Assembly (NCBI GenBank): GCA_029838195.1
Contig: JALGVJ010000009.1
Coordinates: 29,126-93,125 of the forward strand
Source of the DNA: Promethearchaeota archaeon
Lineage (GTDB): Archaea > Asgardarchaeota > Lokiarchaeia > Sigyniarchaeales > SOKP01
Reading direction: 5' to 3'
Length of the DNA stretch: 64,000 nt
The notes under the pieces were generated by a model. It made no database searches. It had not been told where the DNA came from and saw only the letters and a program-made list of their open reading frames with translations. Below, in pieces: positions 6,208 through 30,003 of the stretch; the stretch's first letter is position 1, and each line of letters starts with the position of its first letter. A program made the translations under genes and the position numbers.

Positions 6208-6753
6208 ATGAAAACCAGTCCAACTATCAAATGGAAGTTCAAGGTGGTCATCTGTGGCCCGGGGGCTGTAGGAAAAACCAGTATCATTCAGCGATTTGTC
6301 CATAATAGCTTCTCAATTAGTTATAAAATCACTATTGGGGTCGATTTTTTAACTAAAGATGTAGAATATAAAGATGGGGAAGCTGCTCGTCTCACGATTT
6401 GGGATATTGGCGGACAAGAACGCTATAATTTTCTCCGAGAAAGCTTTTTTGAAAAATCCGATGGTGCATTATTAGTTTTTGATCTCACGAGAGAAAAAAC
6501 ATTCAAAGAAATTAAAAATTGGCTTGAGCAACTGAGGAAATATACTTTTGATGCCATCCCTTTCGTACTTGTCGGAAATAAATCAGATCTTTTAACGGAT
6601 TTAGGCGTGGTTTTAGATAATGACGAAATAAAAAGTTTTGCTAAAAAAGAAAAGGCTTTTTATATAGAAACTTCAGCGAAAAAAAATCAAAATATTGAAT
6701 TGGCCTTTTTAGAATTAACTAAAGCAATTTTAAAATCGAAATCTTCCCGATGA
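6208..6753 (+). CDS. Rab/Ras-like small GTPase
   Basis: G1 GPGAVGKTS, G2 region ITIGVDF, G3 WDIGGQE, G4 GNKSDL and G5 ETSAKK are all present in the canonical order. Confidence 0.85.
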   Translation: MKTSPTIKWKFKVVICGPGAVGKTSIIQRFVHNSFSISYKITIGVDFLTKDVEYKDGEAARLTIWDIGGQERYNFLRESFFEKSDGALLVFDLTREKTFKEIKNWLEQLRKYTFDAIPFVLVGNKSDLLTDLGVVLDNDEIKSFAKKEKAFYIETSAKKNQNIELAFLELTKAILKSKSSR

Positions 6754-12759: not shown

Positions 12760-14184
12760 TTGATTATCGTCAATAATAAGGCAAAAAGCAATAAAGGAGG
12801 GATTTCTAAAAGGGAATCTAATTTAAGTCGGAAAGAGCAATTCCTTTATTCCATTGTTTTTTTTCCTAACATCATTTTAGCAGGAATTTTTAGTCTTAAT
12901 TACGTGAATTTTTTTTGGGATAATTTAAAACTTCAGCAATTATATTTTTCTATTGGATTATTAATATATACGATCGTGAATCCGCTAAATGATTTTTACT
13001 TGGGGCGATTAACGGATAAAACAAATGTAGCTCGTTGGGGGGGTCGTCGTTTAATTTACATGAAATGGGGCGGCCCCTTATGGGCATTTTTATTTTTCAG
13101 CATGTGGTTTCCGTGGAGCTATACGAATCAAGTGGTCATTTTTATTCATTTTATAACAAGTATCATTGGATTTGACATGATGCTTTCTTTAGTTTGGATG
13201 GTATGGACGGCTGTATTGCCTGAGATGACGGAAAATATAGAAGAAAGAAACGTGATCATGTTATATTCTTATTTCATGTCTCTTTTAGGAGCATTTCCCG
13301 TCATGATTGCTTTTTTATTGTTCGAAACGAGCTTGGTGTGGTTTCAAGCGTTTGCCGGAGTCTGTGCGGTAATTTGTGGCGTGTTATATTATATAGTAGG
13401 AGCAAATCTTAAGGAACGCCCCGAGTTATACAAGCAACAAGAGATCATTCCCTTGAAACAAGCCATTAAAGAAATGTTCAGGTTGAAATCGTTTGTGGCA
13501 GATACCATCTATCGTTCCTTCAATCAAATTAATATTATTTTGAGCTCTTCTTTCATATTTGCATATCTCTTCATTTTAGGAGTTGATTTACTAACGGCCT
13601 CTCTCTTGTTCACGTTTAATTCCATTATTTTGGGATTTTTAGGAAATTATATCTATACAAAATTATCCATGACCCGTGACATGAGAGATTTAATCATTAG
13701 GGGGAAAATTGGTATCATTTTAATCAATCTTACTGCTTTTTTCATTATTTTATTCACGGGGTATAAGATTCTTATTTGGATTTTTCTTTTAATCGGAACT
13801 ATAATCGGAGGTTATGGTTTATTTGACTATCCTCTACTGATGTTAGTAACCGACGATGATGAAGTAATGAATGGAACGCGTCGGGAAGGCACAATTATTG
13901 GCACGAATGTTTTCTTCATTAAAATAACAGAAAGTCTTGCGCCAATTTTGGGAACGTCAATTTTATTGTTTTTTGGCTACGTTCAAGGAGCTTCTATTCA
14001 GAGTCCGAGAGCGGAACTGGGAATTCTTTTTCTAATGACGGTTGTACCTTCCATCATTCATTTCTTTGCTCTGTTAGGGATTCTCTATTTTCCCTTGCAT
14101 GGAGATTATCTTAAAGAAATGAATGAAAAACTCTTGAAAATTCATGAGGAGAAGGTAAAACTTTTTTCTTCTTCAAGTAAATAA
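12760..14184 (+). CDS. GPH/MFS-type sugar symporter
   Basis: 474 aa and multi-TM, with NPLNDFYLGRLTDKT...WGGRR as a GPH-like loop. The start is TTG as called by the track. Confidence 0.6.
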   Translation: MIIVNNKAKSNKGGISKRESNLSRKEQFLYSIVFFPNIILAGIFSLNYVNFFWDNLKLQQLYFSIGLLIYTIVNPLNDFYLGRLTDKTNVARWGGRRLIYMKWGGPLWAFLFFSMWFPWSYTNQVVIFIHFITSIIGFDMMLSLVWMVWTAVLPEMTENIEERNVIMLYSYFMSLLGAFPVMIAFLLFETSLVWFQAFAGVCAVICGVLYYIVGANLKERPELYKQQEIIPLKQAIKEMFRLKSFVADTIYRSFNQINIILSSSFIFAYLFILGVDLLTASLLFTFNSIILGFLGNYIYTKLSMTRDMRDLIIRGKIGIILINLTAFFIILFTGYKILIWIFLLIGTIIGGYGLFDYPLLMLVTDDDEVMNGTRREGTIIGTNVFFIKITESLAPILGTSILLFFGYVQGASIQSPRAELGILFLMTVVPSIIHFFALLGILYFPLHGDYLKEMNEKLLKIHEEKVKLFSSSSK

Positions 14185-14266: not shown

Positions 14267-17200
14267 TCATGTAATCAAAATTTTAGCAATCATTTCTAAG
14301 TTAGTATAAAACTTGGATGAGTTGCGTTTTCTCATCTCATTTTTGAGGTCAGAATACCAAAAAGCGAGATCATCTAATTTTTTTTCCGCATTTAAAAGAT
14401 CTTTTTCCAATACTTCAATTTGTTCCAGGAGTTTTTCAATGTCTTTTAGTTTTTTTGTTTTTTTATTTTCATCTTTTAATTTTTGAATGTTTTTCATTTG
14501 CCGTTCCGTGGGCTTCTGATTATATTTTCGTTCGAGTTTTTGTTTTAAAGATTCTATTTTGCGGATCAACACGCGTTGTTCGTGTTCGTGTATTTTTTCT
14601 TTTTTTTTAAGTTCTTGTTGGAAGATTTTTTCATTTAATCTCTTGATCTCCCGTTTCCATTCACTTGTTTTTATTTTTATGAGTTTTTTAGCTTTAATTT
14701 TTAGCGCTTGGATTGTAGCGGCATCACGTTTAAGAACAGCCCCATTTTCCTCATCTTTCAACGGGAAAATATCCTTAAAGTGTTTAATATCCAAAATGTA
14801 ACCCGTAGTTAAGGGGAGTTCATTTCCGAATAGATCAATAACAATGGGAACAAATTGTTGTTCCACGATATATCCTTGAAATTTCAGGTTAAAAATGAAT
14901 AAATAGAGAGCCGTATTCGTGGATATTTCTGATATAATGGAGGAGGGAAGTGCATTTTTCTTTAGCCTTAAAATGGAAATAGTTCCTTTGAAGGAATCGC
15001 TAATCAAATAATCTAACAAAGCATCAATGAGAGGATGGCCTAAAGCAAAAAAATCTAATTCTTCGCGTTTTTTGGCCAACTCTAAATCAAAAGTTCCTGT
15101 ATAGGATTCCGAGAGCGCATTATTATTGAGAATCTCTAAAAAAGATTTATTCAGTGTGATATGGCTGATTAAGCTTTTTTTTTCCCCCTCTATTTCCTCC
15201 GCATTCACCTCATTTGTTAGATGACCATATTTACCCTCATTTAATTCGAAAAACAAGCTAATAAGGAGAAATAACTCATCGTGGGTCAACTTAACTTCAC
15301 CACACGCTGCGAGAGATGTTATTAAGTTGTCCATTTGAAACGATTTTTTATCAATTAATAAATCGTCTAATTGCATTTCGAGTTCCCGCGCTCTTTTAAC
15401 TTGGAATTCTAATTCTCTATTAAATTCCCGTAATTTTCTTGGTTTTTCCTTGATTTCCGAAAATACCAAATCTTGAATATTCTTTTCTATCTTTCCTAAA
15501 ATTGGCTCCAAGGCGCCAATAGATTCTTCAAATAGGTGAATCCGTTTATTTAGAGCGAAAATAATATCCGTCTCAATTGTTCCTTCGATAAAAAAATTAT
15601 AAATGAAAATTTTTTTAGATTTTTGTCCAATCCGGTCTAATCTTCCAATGCGCTGTTCTAACTTCATGGGATTCCATGGCAAGTCGAAGTTTATCAAGAT
15701 TTTACAGAATTGGAAATTTCGACCTTCTCCTCCAATTTCAGTTGATAATAAGAGAGAAAAAGTTTTGCTTTTTCTAAACCTTTGCACGGCTTCGTTTTTT
15801 TCTTGAAGGGTCATCCCGCCATGAAAGACTTCGATATGATACGCCTTGTTTTGGTGCTTGAGAACCTTTTTTAAATGGAATAAAGTATCGACGAATTGCG
15901 TGAAAACGATTACTTTTTCTTCATTATTTTGTTGATATAAGCGATGTATTAACTCTAAAAACGCCTCTGTTTTTGAATCATGGGAAATGGATGTGAGCTT
16001 CTCATGAAATTCCTTGAGGATTTTTTCTTGATTTAATAGATCCATGGTGCGACGCTGAACATCATTCGAATCAATTATTTCAAATAGAGCTCTATCTGTC
16101 TCTAAATCTTGTTTTTCTATTTCGAAATTAAAATATTCGGGATCTTCCTTTTCAAGAATCTCCATCTCACCATGTAAATTTTTTAGCTCCCGAACATGAG
16201 CTAATCTACGTTCTAAACTCTTTAAAAAAGCTTGCTTTGAGCTAGTTAATAATTTTTGAAGCGTCGTGATCACAAATCCTAAGCCTACATTTTGCGTGTT
16301 CAGGGCAGAATTGTAAATTTTGGCAAGATAAAGCCGGATTTCATTATAAATATCTAATTCTTTAGGGGTAGGATTCACTAAAATAGTTTTTACAATGCGT
16401 TCATTTAATAAATCCTTCGAAAACACGTTTTTTTTCCTATTTCGAATTAAAAATTGAGAGAGGGAATGGTCTTCTTCAATTTTTTTAAGTAGAGCTTTTT
16501 TAAAAACACGGTCATTTAATTTATTCAAAATCTTTTCTTTTTTTTCCGTCGCAGCGACATATTTTAAATCTTTTAATAATTTAAGGGTATTTTTAATTTC
16601 GAACGTGTTTAATTTATTTATATCATTTATATTCGATATTAAGAGATTCATGAAGGGCATGTTTTTTCTAAAATGTTCAAAATCACTATAAGAATCGAAG
16701 GCTTCTGGATGAATTAATTCAATTAAAGAATATAATTCAAAAGGATGAAGTTGTAAGGGAGTGGCCGTAAGTAATAATAAACCCTCGCAATTTTGGCTTA
16801 TTTTTTTTGCTAAGGAATAGTTCAAGGTTTCGCGATACGCTCCCGTGGAAGAATTAGTAAGGTATCGCCTTAAATGATGAGCCTCATCAAAAATAACGAT
16901 ATCCCAGGAAATTTGAGATAATAATTCAGCATATTTGGGATTTCTCGCAAATTGTAAGGAACATAATATTAAATTATCATGATAAAAAAGATTATGATAG
17001 ATTTGTAAGCTTTTTAGAGTTCCATTTTTTCCCAACTCTCTAATTTTTTTTCCATCGTAGATTTGAAAGTTGATTTGAAATTTATTGAGCATTTCAAAAT
17101 GCCATTGTTTAACTAACGTTGCGGGAACGATAATCAAAATTCTTTCCGCTAAATTTCTTGCCATCATTTCTTTCACATAAATTCCCGCTTCAATGGTTTT

Positions 17201-24211: not shown

Positions 24212-24739
24212 TCAACTCCGGTTTTTCTTAAACACCTTTCTCAGCCAACTTAAAAAACCCGTTCTGTTGGTTTGAAACGTGTTTAGAAATTTTAACGTTT
24301 TCGTATTATTCGGACACCCTTCACATTCCTCGTGCCCCCCGCAGTTCTTCCGTGCCAAATTCATATCGAGCAAGACTTGCTTGAAATCATCAAATTGCGA
24401 AACCTCCCCATCAAACGCCTCCAAGGTTGAATCATATTTGCTCGTAAAAATCCCCGCAATCCTTCGAATTTTAAAATTAATATCACTCGGATCTTCCCCG
24501 CCATCCGAAATGAACACGTGAAGCAAATCAGGCCTCCTCTCATCCCTGTAAAAATAAAAATTATACTCCTCAAGATTAATCGATTTAATCGTAGACCCGG
24601 TTAACTCCTTCGAAAAATTTTGTAAAGCACATAAAAACCCTGTCAATAACTCCTCATTCGACCCTAATGAATGACACTCACCAAAATGTAATTTTATCAA
24701 GGGAACCCCATCCTTGATGATGAATATATTCCGAATCAT
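24212..24739 (-). CDS. Hypothetical protein with a longin-like N-terminal domain and a C-terminal Cys cluster
   Basis: 175 aa. By eye the pattern is beta-beta (MIRNIFIIKDGVPLIKLHF), helix (ELLTGFLCALQNFSKEL), beta strands (IKSINLEEYNFYFYR, LLHVFISD), helix (INFKIRRIAGIFTSKY). The tail carries CGGHEECEGCP. The fold assignment is not verified. Confidence 0.3.
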   Translation of the reverse strand: MIRNIFIIKDGVPLIKLHFGECHSLGSNEELLTGFLCALQNFSKELTGSTIKSINLEEYNFYFYRDERRPDLLHVFISDGGEDPSDINFKIRRIAGIFTSKYDSTLEAFDGEVSQFDDFKQVLLDMNLARKNCGGHEECEGCPNNTKTLKFLNTFQTNRTGFLSWLRKVFKKNRS

Positions 24740-25346
24740 GACTTAAGCATTTTAAAATTCATTCTATAAGAAAATTCATATCCCTTAATTTTTAAATCTT
24801 ATTTTCATGAAATATAATCCACTCTCATCCGTTCCTCCCATCCCTTGCGCACACCACCTCTCTCACCAAAAAACCAAGTAAAGATTCCCTCTCTGTAATA
24901 CACTCATCCAAATTTTATTCTATACACGTCTTCCCTATCGATGATTTCTATTTATTAAAATTCTTTCTAACCCTAATAAACCATATCTTTTACCAGCCCC
25001 CATTATCCTTGTAAATACGACACTCGCTTCCCTCCACGTGATTTCTAAATTAACCCCCCCAATTTATCACCCGCCTAATTTCAAATCTTAGGTCTATCCT
25101 TTCTTCCCTCATCTCCCCCCTCCAGCCAACACCCTCTCAGCATGACATTATCTTCCTCTTCAAACCATTGGTGTTTCCCAATTTGACAAAAAAATTAAGA
25201 AAAATTAAATATCCTAAAATAAAATCCTATAAGAATTAATATTAAATTAAATTGTTAATTGTTTAAATTATATAATACGTTTTAATAACACATGAATTAA
25301 AGATCCTATATATTAGGAGGTATCAAGATAAAAAAGGTGAGAAAAT

Positions 25347-27308
25347 TTGTCTGATAATCAGACCACGGGTAAACCTACGGTGGGAGTTTTCGTATGCCGC
25401 TGAGGGATTAACATCGCTGGGATCTTAGATGTTCCACGCATGGTTATAGAATTAAACAAGTTAGAAGGCGTGAAAGCGTTCGAATATATTAGCATGTGTA
25501 CGGAGGGAGGCGCTACCTATATTAAGGAGCAGATAGCTGAGAGCAAGCTCGAGCGCATCGTCGTGGCGGCTTGCACGCCCCGCACCCATCAACCAGTCTT
25601 TCATGCTATTTTAAAGGAAGCTGGTTTGCCACCTCGATATTTGGAGTTCGTTAACATACGAGAGCATTGTAGTTTTGTCCATCAAGCACTTGAAATTCGA
25701 GAGAAGGCATTTAATAAAGCCTTGGAATTAATTAAAGCGGGGATTGCTCGAGCCCGATTTTTAGAGGATGTTCCCACGAAGACGGTCAAGGTGAATCAAG
25801 CAGCTTTAGTGGTTGGGGGAGGCATTGCGGGCTTATCGGCTGCCATTGACTTGGGGGATGCAGGATTTAAGGTGTATTTGGTGGAGAAGAATACGACGAT
25901 CGGTGGGAGAATGTCTCAGCTCGACCGCACCTTTCCGACCGATGATTGTAGCATATGAATATTAGGCCCGAAGATGCTCGAGGCGAATCGCCATCCCAAC
26001 ATAGAAATCTTAAGCTATTCAGAAGTCATTGAAGTAAATGGATATATTGGAAATTTTAATGTTAAGATAAAGCGTAAATCTCGCTACGTGGATGAGACAA
26101 AATGCACAGGTTGTGGAAGCTGTACGGATGCATGTCCCATTTACGTGCCCAATTACTTTGATGAGTATCTTTCGGCCCGTAAAGTGATTGATATTGCTTT
26201 TGCTCAAGCAGTACCAGCGGTTAGAAACATTGAGCGTCATTCGTGCGTGGAATGCTTCGCATGTGTGGATGCTTGTGAGCAATCTGCAATAGATTTTAGC
26301 ATTCAAGACAAGATCATGGAGGTAGAAGTTGGAACCATCATTATAGCAACAGGTTGGGACTTATACGAAGGAGAAGATTATGGATATGGCATTTATGATA
26401 ACGTCATTAATCAAATTCAATTGGAGCGAATCTTGGCACCTAATGGACCCACATTGGGCCATTTAAAGCGTCCTTCTGATGGAAAAAGGCCGAAGCGTAT
26501 CTTGTTTATCAATTGCGTGGGCTCACGAGATATCAATAAAAACCCTTGGTGCAGCGTGGTGTGTTGTAATTTATCCTTGAAGAATTCCAAGCTCATCAAG
26601 TCAGAGCATCCCGATTCGGAAATCGTGTGTGTTTACATAGACATGCGTTGTGCCGGAAAAGATTATGAGGAGTATTACCGGCGATCTCGCGATGCGGGTA
26701 TTATTTTCGTAAAGGGTATCGTGGGTAAAATTGAGGAAGATCCAGAAACAAAGAACTTGCGCGTTTGGTTTGAGCCGGTTGGAGCAGATACGGTGATAAG
26801 CAAGGAATTTGACATGGTGGTACTATCCTCATCATCGTTGCCCTCGAAGGGAACGAGGGAAATAGCAGAAGTACTTAACATGGAGCGGAGTCCTGACGGA
26901 TTTTTAAAAGAATATCATGCACGATTAGACCCGATAAGTACTAAAGTATATGGCATTTATATTTGCGGCTCATCTCAAGGACAGAAGGAAATCGATAAAG
27001 CAGTGAGTCAAGCAAAGGGAGCCGCCTCTAGTGCGGCAATTCCCATGAAAAAGGGAGAGTTTACCATTGAATTAATTCGAGCTACACCGTCAGATGAGCG
27101 ATGTGCAAAATGCTATAAATGCATAGAGATCTGTCCATTTAGTGCAATCTCTGTGAATGAAACTGGAAATCTAGTAGTTGATTTAATTGCGTGCCGAGGA
27201 TGCGGAACTTGCGCAGCTATTTGTCCTTCGAAAGCGATTGATTTAATTTATTATCGAGATCTACAATACATGAATTTGATAGATGAATTACTTCCCATGG
27301 AAGATTAA
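25347..27308 (+). CDS. hdrA: Heterodisulfide reductase subunit A (HdrA), selenocysteine form with two in-frame UGA codons (25401-25403, 25956-25958)
   Basis: TTG at 25347 lies 7 nt after AGGTGA. One frame gives GVFVCR-U-GINIAG..VVAACTPRTH..NIREHCSFVH..GGGIAGL..PTDDCSI-U-ILGPKM.. plus ferredoxin CxxCxxCxxxCP motifs, 653 codons in all. The track's ORFs 25440..25958 and 25974..27308 are in the same frame. Confidence 0.85.
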
Positions 27309-27321
27309 AGAGGTTAAAAAA

Positions 27322-27768
27322 ATGTCGGAAATGGATGATATTAAGATTTTGGCTTTCCTCTGTTGGAAATGAGGATATGGGTCGGCAGACATGGCAGGAA
27401 CCATTCGTGCGCAATATCCCACGTCGATTCGGCCTGTTTTAGTTCCATGTACGGGTAGGGTAGGAGCAGACGATGTCATGCGGGCGTTTGGAAGAGGAGC
27501 AGATGGCGTGATGATTGTAGGATGATATCCTCATGAATGTGACTATGAAATCGGGAATTTTTTCGCTTATCGTCAGGTGGAATATTTAAAAGAAGTAATG
27601 AGGGCTGTTGGACTTAGTGAAGAGAGGCTCATGATGGGCTTCTGTTCGGCAGCAGAAGGAGAGAAGTTTCAGAGAACGGCCACGGAATTTGACAAGCGAA
27701 TTAGAGAATTAGGGCCGAGTCCGTTGAGAACAAAAAGCGGCACCTCCAAAAAAAAAGCAAAAGTATAA
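27322..27768 (+). CDS. vhuD: MvhD/VhuD-type [2Fe-2S] subunit, selenocysteine form with two in-frame UGA codons (27370-27372, 27523-27525)
   Basis: ATG at 27322 gives MSEMDDIKILAFLCWK-U-GYGSADMAG...LVPCTGRV...GADGVMIVG-U-YPHECDYEIGNFFAYRQ..., the MvhD signature with U at two Cys positions. The track sees only the last 63 aa (27577..27768). Confidence 0.85.
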
Positions 27769-27773
27769 AAAAC

Positions 27774-27832
27774 GTGTTAGCTGATGATGCTGGGTTGGAA
27801 ATATTAGAACCTAGTGGAGGAAATGGTTGCAC
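27774..27832 (+). promoter_or_regulatory. SECIS-like hairpin in the vhuD 3' UTR (ATGA...A-rich loop...GA kink-turn-type core)
   Basis: Hand fold: CTGGGTT (27790-96) pairs with AACCTAG (27808-14), extended by two G-U pairs. The apical loop is the 11-nt GGAAATATTAG. AUGA (27784-87) faces GAGG (27817-20), which allows tandem G.A/A.G pairs. An imperfect lower helix pairs 27774-81 with 27825-32. Confidence 0.55.
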
Positions 27833-27998
27833 CATTAACACGCCTTTAATCATTAAAAAAATATAAAGATTTAAGACACGTATTAGAAAAAATAAAGAGA
27901 GAACAACTTGAAGTTTTAAAACAAATTAAATAGAAATTTTAAAAAAAAATAACTTGTTCCATTTAATAATTAAAAATAACTATTCAAGTGGGAAATAC

Positions 27999-29138
27999 AT
28001 GGATGCAATTGCTGAATATCTGATCAAGATAAAGGATTTTCAAGAATTATTATCTACTCTTTTAGAGCAGAAAGTAGTAGATAAGGTACTTGGCGCAAAA
28101 TTGAAGGTTGATAAAAAATCGGGGGGAATTAACCGTTTTACGGTCGTACCAGAAGCGGTTTCTGATCCCAATGGAGTGTCAGGTTTTCCCTTGACGGCGC
28201 TTTTAGCCTATGGATATGCCCGAACGGATTCTGCGGCAAAGTACGTGCACAAATCACTTCAAGGAGCGAAGGAAGAAAAAATAGGTATTATTGCGAGACC
28301 CTGTGATACGCGGGCGCTCATTGAATTGGCTAAATTAAAACAAGTAAATTTGGAAAACATTTTCATCATTGCATTTGAAGACAGGGGCACGGTTCCGAAG
28401 GCTTCCAGAGAGATCAAGAAAATAAAGGATGTGGATCCTTCGAAAATCGTAAAAGAGAAAGTAGAAGATGGTGGCCTCCTCGTTCAGTTAGAGGATGGTA
28501 CTACTAAACTGTTGAATCTCACGATTGCGGAGAATTGCTTGCGATGTTATCGGAAAAAACCGGTCATGGCAGATTTATCCATTAGCGATTTGGGAATTCC
28601 TATAGAATCCGATGAAATTATCTTAAAAGTATATTCTGAAAAAGGAAATGATGTGTTAGAAAAATCGGGAATACAGAAAAATCCAATTTCGGATCAAGTG
28701 AAAAATGCTCACGAAACTAAATATAAAGAAATCATTGAAAAAGCACGGGAAAAGCGAGCAAAAGATTTGGAGGAATGGGCAAATCTTCCTCAAGAAAAAA
28801 AGATCGAACTCTTGAAAAAATGTACTGCTTGCGGAACATGTATTCGTGGATGTCCTGTTTGTTATTGCGTGGATTGCATATTAATGAAGAAAAGAAAAGA
28901 AAAGTCAATCGATACTGTGAGTTATCAATTAACCCGCATAGCACATGATGCAGATCGATGCGTGGAATGTGGAAATTGTGATAATAATTGTCCAATGAAC
29001 ATTCCTCTTTCCTTATACTTTCAATCGTTAAATGATGCCTTCAAGGAAAAGTTTGACTATGAACCCGGCATGTCTATAGAAGATATTCCTTTTCGATCCG
29101 GGATGGCAATAAAGAAAATGGAATTAGAAAAAGCATGA
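27999..29138 (+). CDS. Fe-S oxidoreductase subunit (FrhB/AsrA-like, 4Fe-4S dicluster with a CPxCxC motif)
   Basis: It has IGIIARPCDTRAL, CTACGTCIRGCPVCYCVDC and CVECGNCDNNCPMNIP. The ATG at 27999 (MDAIAEY) is preferred to the TTG at 27954. Confidence 0.5.
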   Translation: MDAIAEYLIKIKDFQELLSTLLEQKVVDKVLGAKLKVDKKSGGINRFTVVPEAVSDPNGVSGFPLTALLAYGYARTDSAAKYVHKSLQGAKEEKIGIIARPCDTRALIELAKLKQVNLENIFIIAFEDRGTVPKASREIKKIKDVDPSKIVKEKVEDGGLLVQLEDGTTKLLNLTIAENCLRCYRKKPVMADLSISDLGIPIESDEIILKVYSEKGNDVLEKSGIQKNPISDQVKNAHETKYKEIIEKAREKRAKDLEEWANLPQEKKIELLKKCTACGTCIRGCPVCYCVDCILMKKRKEKSIDTVSYQLTRIAHDADRCVECGNCDNNCPMNIPLSLYFQSLNDAFKEKFDYEPGMSIEDIPFRSGMAIKKMELEKA

Positions 29139-29229: not shown

Positions 29230-30003
29230 ATGAGTCTTCCCTCAAAAAAAGCAATTCAAGTGGATGAAAATATCACGGATTATCAATATAAGATGCTAAA
29301 CTTAGAAATGGTGCTCCGATACGACGATACCAAATGCCTAGAATGTGGATTTTGCCACAGAGTCTGTCCCGTGACCACGCAAATAGTAGACGGAAAAGAA
29401 GTACCTTTGAAAAGAACTGCGATCGGCACGCCCGAGCAAATGAATATCAAATCTGATAAGAAGACCGTCGTGGATTTAGACAAATGCATTTGGTGTGGCT
29501 CTTGCACGTGGATCTGCCCAGGGTATACGCTAGAATTATTCATTGATGGACAAAAAAAGTTATTATTGGTGGAGAATGGATCTCTTCCCGAATTTGAGGA
29601 AGAAATACGAGAATTAGAAGATGGCAGGAAAGTTAGGAAAGTGGTGGAAGGGAGTATTAAGATCACGTGCAATGAAACAGATGAAAAGATAATTGAAAAT
29701 TTTGTCGACGAGTGTGCCGTGGGTGCCATGAGTAGAAAAGAAAAAGACATTGAAGTAGATATAAACAAGTGTATTTTATGTTTTAAATGCACAGAAGCTT
29801 CAAAGAATTATGAAAACATCAGCGTGGAAGTCCATAGGGATCGCTTTAAACAGGTAAAGGGCGAACCGGGATCCGTATGGAATGGTATCATGTTGCGGGT
29901 ATTAGGAAAAGAAGGTAAGATTAAGGGCATTATTAGTCGCACTCAAAATAAACTTGCGGATGCTGTAATGCGGCTATTAGGAAGAGAATTTATTGAAGAG
30001 TAA
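29230..30003 (+). CDS. Polyferredoxin-like 4Fe-4S protein
   Basis: It has CLECGFCHRVCP, CIWCGSCTWICP and CILCFKCTE cluster motifs. Confidence 0.6.
   Translation: MSLPSKKAIQVDENITDYQYKMLNLEMVLRYDDTKCLECGFCHRVCPVTTQIVDGKEVPLKRTAIGTPEQMNIKSDKKTVVDLDKCIWCGSCTWICPGYTLELFIDGQKKLLLVENGSLPEFEEEIRELEDGRKVRKVVEGSIKITCNETDEKIIENFVDECAVGAMSRKEKDIEVDINKCILCFKCTEASKNYENISVEVHRDRFKQVKGEPGSVWNGIMLRVLGKEGKIKGIISRTQNKLADAVMRLLGREFIEE

Follow-up and report, generated by a model that had tools for sequence, protein, structure and literature searches.

How does an archaeon read through two adjacent genes that carry four in-frame UGA codons between them, and is a small RNA structure just beyond the second gene the signal that lets it do so? 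The question is raised by a 64,000-nucleotide stretch of contig JALGVJ010000009.1 from a Promethearchaeota archaeon (the whole of this stretch is called the window here), in which hdrA and vhuD stand side by side and a candidate selenocysteine insertion sequence (SECIS) follows the vhuD stop codon. A first-pass annotation, made from the sequence letters, had proposed a eukaryote-like SECIS of the Lokiarchaeota type at this site. The analysis reported here makes it highly probable that the element is an Asgard-type SECIS (lokiSECIS, eSECIS-like type I) borne by the transcript of hdrA and vhuD shortly downstream of the vhuD stop; its features agree with the published descriptions (PMC4989117, PMC11227280), the start of the apical loop being the one soft point.

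The two genes pose the problem that such an element would solve. The hdrA product, which contains iron-sulfur (Fe-S) and FAD domains in Pfam, matches the HdrA chain of PDB entry 5odc_A (E = 2e-133) with cysteine (Cys) opposite both of its UGAs (VCHCG and DCSICIL). VhuD, with its UGAs read through, matches the full profile of Pfam FlpD (E = 8.7e-42); both of its UGAs lie opposite X, presumably selenocysteine (Sec), in PDB 9sfi_K and opposite Cys in 9sw2_D. The first-pass reading of the UGAs as Sec codons is borne out by these comparisons, in which each of the four is matched by Cys or Sec in the solved structures of Hdr/Mvh proteins, and hdrA and vhuD are predicted to encode selenoproteins, with their four Sec codons at positions where Cys or Sec is conserved. 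Two in-frame stops are also present in the vhuD genes of 80/80 orthologous loci. The spacer between hdrA and vhuD is 13 nt long and includes a GAGGT ribosome-binding site. Measured to the AUGA motif of the element, the distances are 2383 and 1828 nt for the hdrA UGAs and 414 and 261 nt for those of vhuD. The hdrA stop is TAA, in agreement with the published model, which predicts that this stop is not UGA; it is never UGA in the published set (PMC4989117).

Further observations concern the same two genes. The canonical Sec codon of hdrA is the one at 25956-25958; the other, at 25401-25403, lies near the N-terminus (VCR-U-GINIAG; Cys in 5odc_A), and HdrA proteins with several Sec residues have been reported in Lokiarchaeota and not in methanogens (PMC4989117). 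All 12 vhuD relatives inspected, of 120 listed, have W at both Sec positions; the W reflects TGA read as tryptophan by the gene caller, so that these relatives are also of the Sec type. On contig JBQSIY010000121.1 (GCA_054387035.1), which is identical to the window around the element, positions 27553-27768 included, vhuD has been called as a 71-residue fragment.

The element is built on a stem-loop whose base-by-base reading agrees with the hairpin drawn in the first pass. Position 27774, where the proposed structure began, is the sixth base downstream of the vhuD stop TAA (27766-27768), and the first base of AUGA (27784-27787) lies 15 nt past that stop. Directly above AUGA, UGCUGGGUU (27788-27796) pairs with AACCUAGUG (27808-27816) over 9 bp with no mismatches; three of the pairs are G-U (U27788-G27816, G27789-U27815, and G27792-U27812). 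The 11-nt apical loop, GGAAAUAUUAG (27797-27807), is unpaired in all folds and has no ministem. It starts with GGAAA, in which three of five bases are adenines, and ends with A27806 and G27807; no ortholog departs from the adenines at loop positions 3-5. GAGG (27817-27820) follows directly 3' of the upper stem, and its first two bases are the GA of the core. The layout needed for the tandem sheared pairs G27786.A27818 and A27787.G27817, which had been put forward as a possibility, is present and its core is conserved; from these features we infer a kink-turn geometry. No U-tract follows the hairpin in the sequence.

Stability alone is only mildly unusual. RNAfold, the thermodynamic check suggested with the first-pass annotation, recovers the upper helix in every context tried, at -9.3 kcal/mol for the 35-nt core (z = -3.64), -13.4 kcal/mol for the 59-nt fragment as originally delimited (z = -2.56), and -18.4 kcal/mol for stretches of 74 nt (z = -1.83) and 91 nt (z = -1.31). 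Thermodynamics is not compelling here; the specific pattern is. A strict pattern, in which ATGA is followed by nine base pairs around a loop of 11 nt with G as its last base and by GA, was scanned on both strands of the window; it occurs once in the 64 kb and in 0/300 simulated 64-kb sequences of equal dinucleotide content. Matches found when one mismatch was admitted, at 14144(+), 55350(+), and 57239(-), were rejected: either the loop does not end in G or its length is wrong, and none of them is downstream of a UGA-containing gene. The earlier statement that no second such hairpin lies between hdrA and vhuD or upstream of hdrA is upheld by this pattern scan and by the covariance model described below.

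The element recurs wherever the orthologous genes were sampled. A VhuD scan of one genome per prokaryotic species yielded the 80 best loci (64-81% protein identity), which together with the window make up the 81 sequences compared. An element of the same kind is present in 80/80 loci, with AUGA starting 11-21 nt past the vhuD stop, and the AUGA/GA core, whose conservation had been named as a check, is conserved in all of them. The UGA of the core is invariant in the 81 aligned elements and its first A is kept in at least 90%; GA stands 3' of the stem in 79/80 orthologs, with AA in the remaining one. Nor does the alignment show any variation in the three adenines of the loop, in its final G, or at several positions in the flanks. 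These conserved unpaired bases are more than a plain stability hairpin would require. The loop GGAAAUAUUAG is found in no other of the 81 elements, the commonest loop being AAAAAAAUGAG.

The paired bases vary in concert. In the 81 sequences 94.8-94.9% of upper-stem cells are paired, and the compensatory changes sought at orthologous loci are seen in 8/9 stem pairs; one pair, for example, is A-U in 39 sequences and G-C in 32, and another is G-C in 63 and A-U in 13. The pair adjoining the core (27788.27816) is standard in about 60% and non-standard in 32/80 distinct sequences, as expected of the pair that directly follows the tandem G.A in a kink-turn. When the 3' partners were slid by 1-3 columns, pairing fell from 90-97% to 27-53%; for the structure as a whole the drop was from 96.7% to 29-50%. 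A shuffle control was exceeded in every run, a result that does not amount to a probability, the sequences being related.

The 80 loci were all recovered from metagenome-assembled genomes of Asgard archaea, under the labels Promethearchaeota, Hod-, Hermod-, Odin-, and Thorarchaeota, with one exception by label. The exception, DATKTW010000168.1 (locus L011), is titled 'Candidatus Nanopelagicaceae bacterium' and has an hdrA-vhuD-SECIS-frhB-like locus of the usual Asgard form; wrong binning or a wrong label is probable. The lineage guess of the first-pass annotation is supported by the Asgard origin of these vhuD relatives, one odd label apart, and by the presence of a Ras-family GTPase in the window.

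A covariance model (R1; 75 model positions) was built from the 80 orthologous elements with the window left out, and was run on both strands of the window (128 kb) with filters off. It matches 27771-27844 over model positions 1-75 at 72.8 bits, with a nominal E of about 1e-17 that is rough, as are all of these E-values, owing to a shortened calibration. The next-best match in the window (19.6 bits, 16074-16137(-)) has no AUGA and was rejected as a second element. In the window and the 80 loci together (540 kb) R1 has exactly 81 matches at E <= 0.001, one per source and all after vhuD. A search with covariance models had been recommended for the candidate, and its outcome is divided: it is positive for R1, built here from Asgard orthologs, and negative for the models of Rfam, those of eukaryotic SECIS included.

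These features place the element in a known class, that of the lokiSECIS (Asgard eSECIS-like type I), of which it is a typical example; it does not represent a novel type. The class was published in 2016 (PMC4989117) and surveyed in 2024 (PMC11227280) and 2026. As defined, the lokiSECIS has AUGA, a stem of precisely 9 bp, an 11-nt loop with adenines at its start and an ultraconserved final G that usually follows an A, and a GA that follows the stem, and it lies near the stop codon; every HdrA-VhuD tandem had a single element, located after VhuD (PMC4989117). The survey of more than 400 Asgard genomes allowed a stem of 7-15 bp with at most two mismatches, a loop of 8-20 nt, and GA or rarely AA, and found that hdrA and frhD (the vhuD of this text) almost always share one element (PMC11227280). 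In the window, too, AUGA leads into a 9-bp stem, the 11-nt loop has AG as its last two bases, GA follows the stem, and the element is no farther than about 20 nt from the vhuD stop; hdrA and vhuD share this single element, the UGAs are spread over about 2 kb, and standard SECIS tools miss it. It differs in its loop, which starts with GGAAA and not with an adenine run; loops starting G[U/G]AAA are known mainly from hdrA/frhD of Sifarchaeia and Borrarchaeales (PMC11227280). The window element is a divergent member of the class. As a separate observation, the lokiSECIS class seemingly has no curated model in Rfam 15, judging from the window and from a consensus-like ortholog (locus L050).

Below the core the structure appears to be more elaborate than was first drawn. 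The lower helix proposed in the first pass (27774-27781 with 27825-27832) forms only when the 59-nt fragment is folded alone, and the orthologs disfavour it: it is 76% paired there with its inner pairs mostly unpaired, its central U-A is broken (A to C) without compensation in 15/81 sequences, and it clashes with a mini-hairpin found by RNAalifold. With flanks included, the minimum-energy and centroid folds both give a closing helix (27773-27779 with 27836-27842) and that mini-hairpin (27823-27835). The closing helix is 96.4% paired in the model-based alignment, which leans towards its own model, and 88-94% paired in MAFFT alignments; in the window C27773-G27842 replaces the consensus U-A. Pairing in the mini-hairpin reaches 99.7%, with G27829 and C27830 of its loop invariant in 81 sequences, and covariation says little about it because its sequence is almost invariant. 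Closing helix and mini-hairpin are better supported than the helix they replace; they are not proven, and as it is mainly their sequence that is conserved, their covariation support is thin. An open reading frame (ORF) beginning at the AUG at 27823 was considered for this region and rejected, since 1-nt indels between CCAU and AACAC shift its frame among orthologs.

Between the closing helix and the core lies a 2-bp stem. Its first pair, C27781-G27820, is C-G in 81/81 sequences, and its second, 27782-27819, is pairable in all 81 (U-A in 69, U-G in 11, and C-G in one); the 3-nt bulge G27783-A27784-U27785 reads RAU in 75/81. Stem, bulge, and tandem G.A pairs match the standard layout of a kink-turn, which the RNA would be expected to adopt in three dimensions. 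GUGU (27774-27777) could pair with GCAC (27829-27832) or with ACAC (27838-27841), and alternative conformers are conceivable. The main texts on the class describe core, stem, and loop only for hdrA-vhuD, with no extended features (PMC4989117, PMC11227280), and what novelty remains in the present element resides in its extended three-branch architecture. A tentative proposal, which we judge rather unlikely to hold as a whole, is that the Asgard hdrA-vhuD SECIS is a 74-nt three-branch RNA (closing helix, kink-turn with a 2-bp stem, and mini-hairpin) and not a simple hairpin; the additional part could offer a second platform for binding or switch between alternative pairings, and might let one element serve up to six UGAs in two cistrons over more than 2 kb.

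How the element might act can be sketched by analogy with the eukaryotic SECIS and from the published model, both of which suggest recognition of the kink-turn core and the loop adenines. AUGA (27784-27787) and GA (27817-27818) would meet in tandem sheared G.A pairs, making a kink-turn at the base of the 9-bp stem, and the 11-nt loop would display three unpaired adenines. A Sec-specific elongation factor carrying Sec-tRNA(Sec) would recognise this RNA directly or via a kink-turn-binding adaptor, and would deliver its cargo to ribosomes pausing at the four UGAs of a presumed bicistronic hdrA-vhuD mRNA. The four upstream UGAs (two in hdrA and two in vhuD) would then be read as selenocysteine instead of stop. 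The role of the element in Sec insertion is a proposed one.

A number of results weigh against the reading of the element as an active SECIS. No lokiSECIS has been validated experimentally, and when the SECIS of a lokiarchaeal vhuU was placed in a Methanococcus maripaludis reporter, activity stayed at background (21.1 mU/mg, against 22.1 mU/mg without a SECIS; PMC11881835); the null result is compatible with a different Asgard binding factor and leaves function unproven. The window contains no tRNA gene, tRNA(Sec) included, and no gene for the Sec machinery is found among the 34 of its ORFs scanned against Pfam. The flanked folds are only modestly stable (z of -1.3 to -1.8), and the element ranks 75th of 81 by R1 score, with a loop that starts with GG and not with adenines. 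Rfam 15 gave no match at the gathering score anywhere in the window; at E <= 10, the 261 nt from 27700 to 27960 and the consensus-like ortholog (about 200 nt) showed no SECIS family and no match above chance level. This null result fits the published failure of standard models on the class, in that archaeal, bacterial, and eukaryotic SECIS models gave no match on lokiSECIS elements (PMC4989117). No hdrA-mvhD relatives of the Cys type, which would serve as a negative control, were found among the 12 inspected.

Even a genuine SECIS could serve vhuD only, with the hdrA UGAs decoded via another signal (for example, one inside hdrA) or not decoded. The two genes form distinct cistrons, between which lie a stop codon and the 13-nt spacer with a ribosome-binding site of its own; their co-transcription is assumed, and a 3' element acting across a cistron boundary over 2.4 kb has no experimental precedent. 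We nevertheless regard this restriction to vhuD as quite improbable. Exactly one element, after vhuD, is present in 81/81 loci, and no second one is detected in the window by pattern or model, in searches that covered this structural class only; published analyses favour a shared element (PMC4989117, PMC11227280), and the hdrA stop, TAA here, is of the kind that such sharing predicts. A signal of methanogen type is not found near hdrA either. The methanogen SECIS has the same 3' position after the same orthologous genes, but methanogen hdrA has a SECIS of its own, and the GAA_A bulge with G-C clamps is not present here. That the canonical GAA_A internal loop is absent had been remarked in the first pass, and a pattern scan after vhuD, between the genes, and upstream of hdrA agrees: nothing was found in 27769-27998 or 27300-27330, and matches in 25040-25346 were dismissed as A/U-only, with no G-C pair. 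The vhuD SECIS of Methanococcales and Methanopyrus, which has AUGA and GAC/AAC around an extra stem, has been proposed as the ancestor of the Asgard form (PMC4989117, PMC11227280).

Two other identities for the RNA were weighed against that of an Asgard-type SECIS. A canonical stem, a 3-nt bulge, and tandem G.A pairs make up the generic kink-turn signature bound by archaeal L7Ae, and the window element has this layout: a canonical stem, the bulge GAU, tandem G.A/A.G, and a variable, often non-standard next pair. Its conservation might reflect a different task for the kink-turn or stem-loop (forming mRNA 3' ends, stabilising the mRNA, or regulation through L7Ae), with only a chance association with selenoprotein genes; the order hdrA-vhuD-frhB-like is itself conserved, such that position alone is no proof of recoding, and the recoding function is unproven (PMC11881835). 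We consider this very improbable. In Lokiarchaeum the motif occurs after unrelated selenoprotein genes (PrxL, VhuU) and almost nowhere else (PMC4989117); the adenines and terminal G that never vary in the loop correspond to the AAR of the eukaryotic SECIS and are needless for a kink-turn or a terminator, and the U-tract of a terminator is lacking. The likeness to L7Ae-bound kink-turns is one of sequence signature alone, and the canonical stem here has only 2 bp before the junction. An L7Ae-domain gene was not found among the window ORFs scanned against Pfam. The other identity, in which the RNA belongs to the eukaryotic SECIS family proper and is read by an SBP2-type protein in the full eukaryotic manner, has hardly any likelihood left. 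AUGA, unpaired adenines (AA(R) in form 1, Rfam SECIS_1; AAA here), and GA do occur in the same relative order, with a proposed kink-turn-like tandem G.A core, downstream of the coding region and acting at a distance on several UGAs. But neither the window element nor the consensus-like ortholog matches an Rfam SECIS family at E <= 10, the stem above the core is shorter than in form 1, and no SBP2 was detected in Lokiarchaeota (PMC4989117) or is known from Asgard archaea. Below the core of the window element come the 2-bp stem with its bulge of 3 nt and a three-branch junction that holds an additional 3' hairpin, whereas eukaryotic elements have an internal loop and helix I; the messenger, too, is prokaryotic and polycistronic.

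With an Asgard-type SECIS as the preferred identity, the coordinates of its parts and of the genes around it are collected in Table 1. The order hdrA-vhuD-element-frhB-like gene is kept in 78/80 loci, and the SECIS may lie between cistrons of a longer conserved operon and not in a terminal 3' untranslated region, as far as gene order can tell. Upstream of hdrA, the 607-nt divergent intergenic region that separates it from a minus-strand gene (24212-24739) contains a strongly G-poor non-coding stretch (24800-25180(+); 25 G in 381 nt; GC skew of about -0.7), and similarity to the closest relative (locus L017) is confined to roughly the 120 nt next to hdrA. The G+C content of the window is 35%. 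Ras-family small GTPases such as the one encoded here count among the eukaryotic signature proteins characteristic of Asgard archaea. The ORFs scanned against Pfam also include an aldehyde:ferredoxin oxidoreductase and other ordinary metabolic genes. A 573-codon ORF with one TGA (57945-56224(-)) was considered as a further selenoprotein gene and rejected, as it consists of two adjacent genes in the same frame, an acetyltransferase-like gene ending at the TGA and a metallo-beta-lactamase-like gene.

Table 1. Parts of the SECIS element and genes of the window, in window positions.
Feature	Coordinates	Strand	Basis or remark
Full conserved SECIS element, about 74 nt	27771-27844	+	R1, 72.8 bits; three-branch minimum-energy fold, -18.4 kcal/mol
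Closing helix, 5' strand CGUGUUA	27773-27779	+	Minimum-energy and centroid folds
2-bp stem, 5' strand	27781-27782	+	C27781-G27820, U27782-G27819
AUGA core	27784-27787	+	Proposed sheared pairs G27786.A27818, A27787.G27817
Upper stem, 5' strand, 9 bp	27788-27796	+	RNAfold; 8/9 pairs with changes on both sides
Apical loop GGAAAUAUUAG	27797-27807	+	AAA 27799-27801 and terminal G27807 invariant among orthologs
Upper stem, 3' strand	27808-27816	+	RNAfold and covariation
GA of core, facing GA of AUGA	27817-27818	+	GA in 80/81 sequences, AA in 1
2-bp stem, 3' strand, below GA pairs	27819-27820	+	Alignment
3' mini-hairpin AUGGU-UGC-ACCAU in junction	27823-27835	+	RNAalifold and RNAfold independently
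Closing helix, 3' strand UAACACG	27836-27842	+	Same folds as 5' strand; alignment pairing
hdrA	25347-27308	+	TTG start, TAA stop (27306-27308); in-frame UGA 25401-25403, 25956-25958
vhuD / mvhD (FlpD family)	27322-27768	+	TAA stop; in-frame UGA 27370-27372, 27523-27525
FrhB/FdhB-like Fe-S protein	27999-29138		About 160-200 nt past SECIS in 78/80 loci
Polyferredoxin-like gene	29230-30003		Present in 23/80 loci within DNA examined
Ras-family small GTPase	6208-6753	+	Pfam Ras, E = 5e-49

Recognising the element would lead to a corrected annotation of two redox enzymes, and the extended RNA (27771-27844) is a defined bait for finding the archaeal SECIS-binding factor. The locus is a clean further example of its class, with one element, two genes, and four UGAs, the farthest of them 2.4 kb away; the case that Sec decoding of UGA in the eukaryotic manner was already emerging in the archaeal ancestors of eukaryotes rests mainly on the eukaryote-like SECIS elements found in Asgard archaea.

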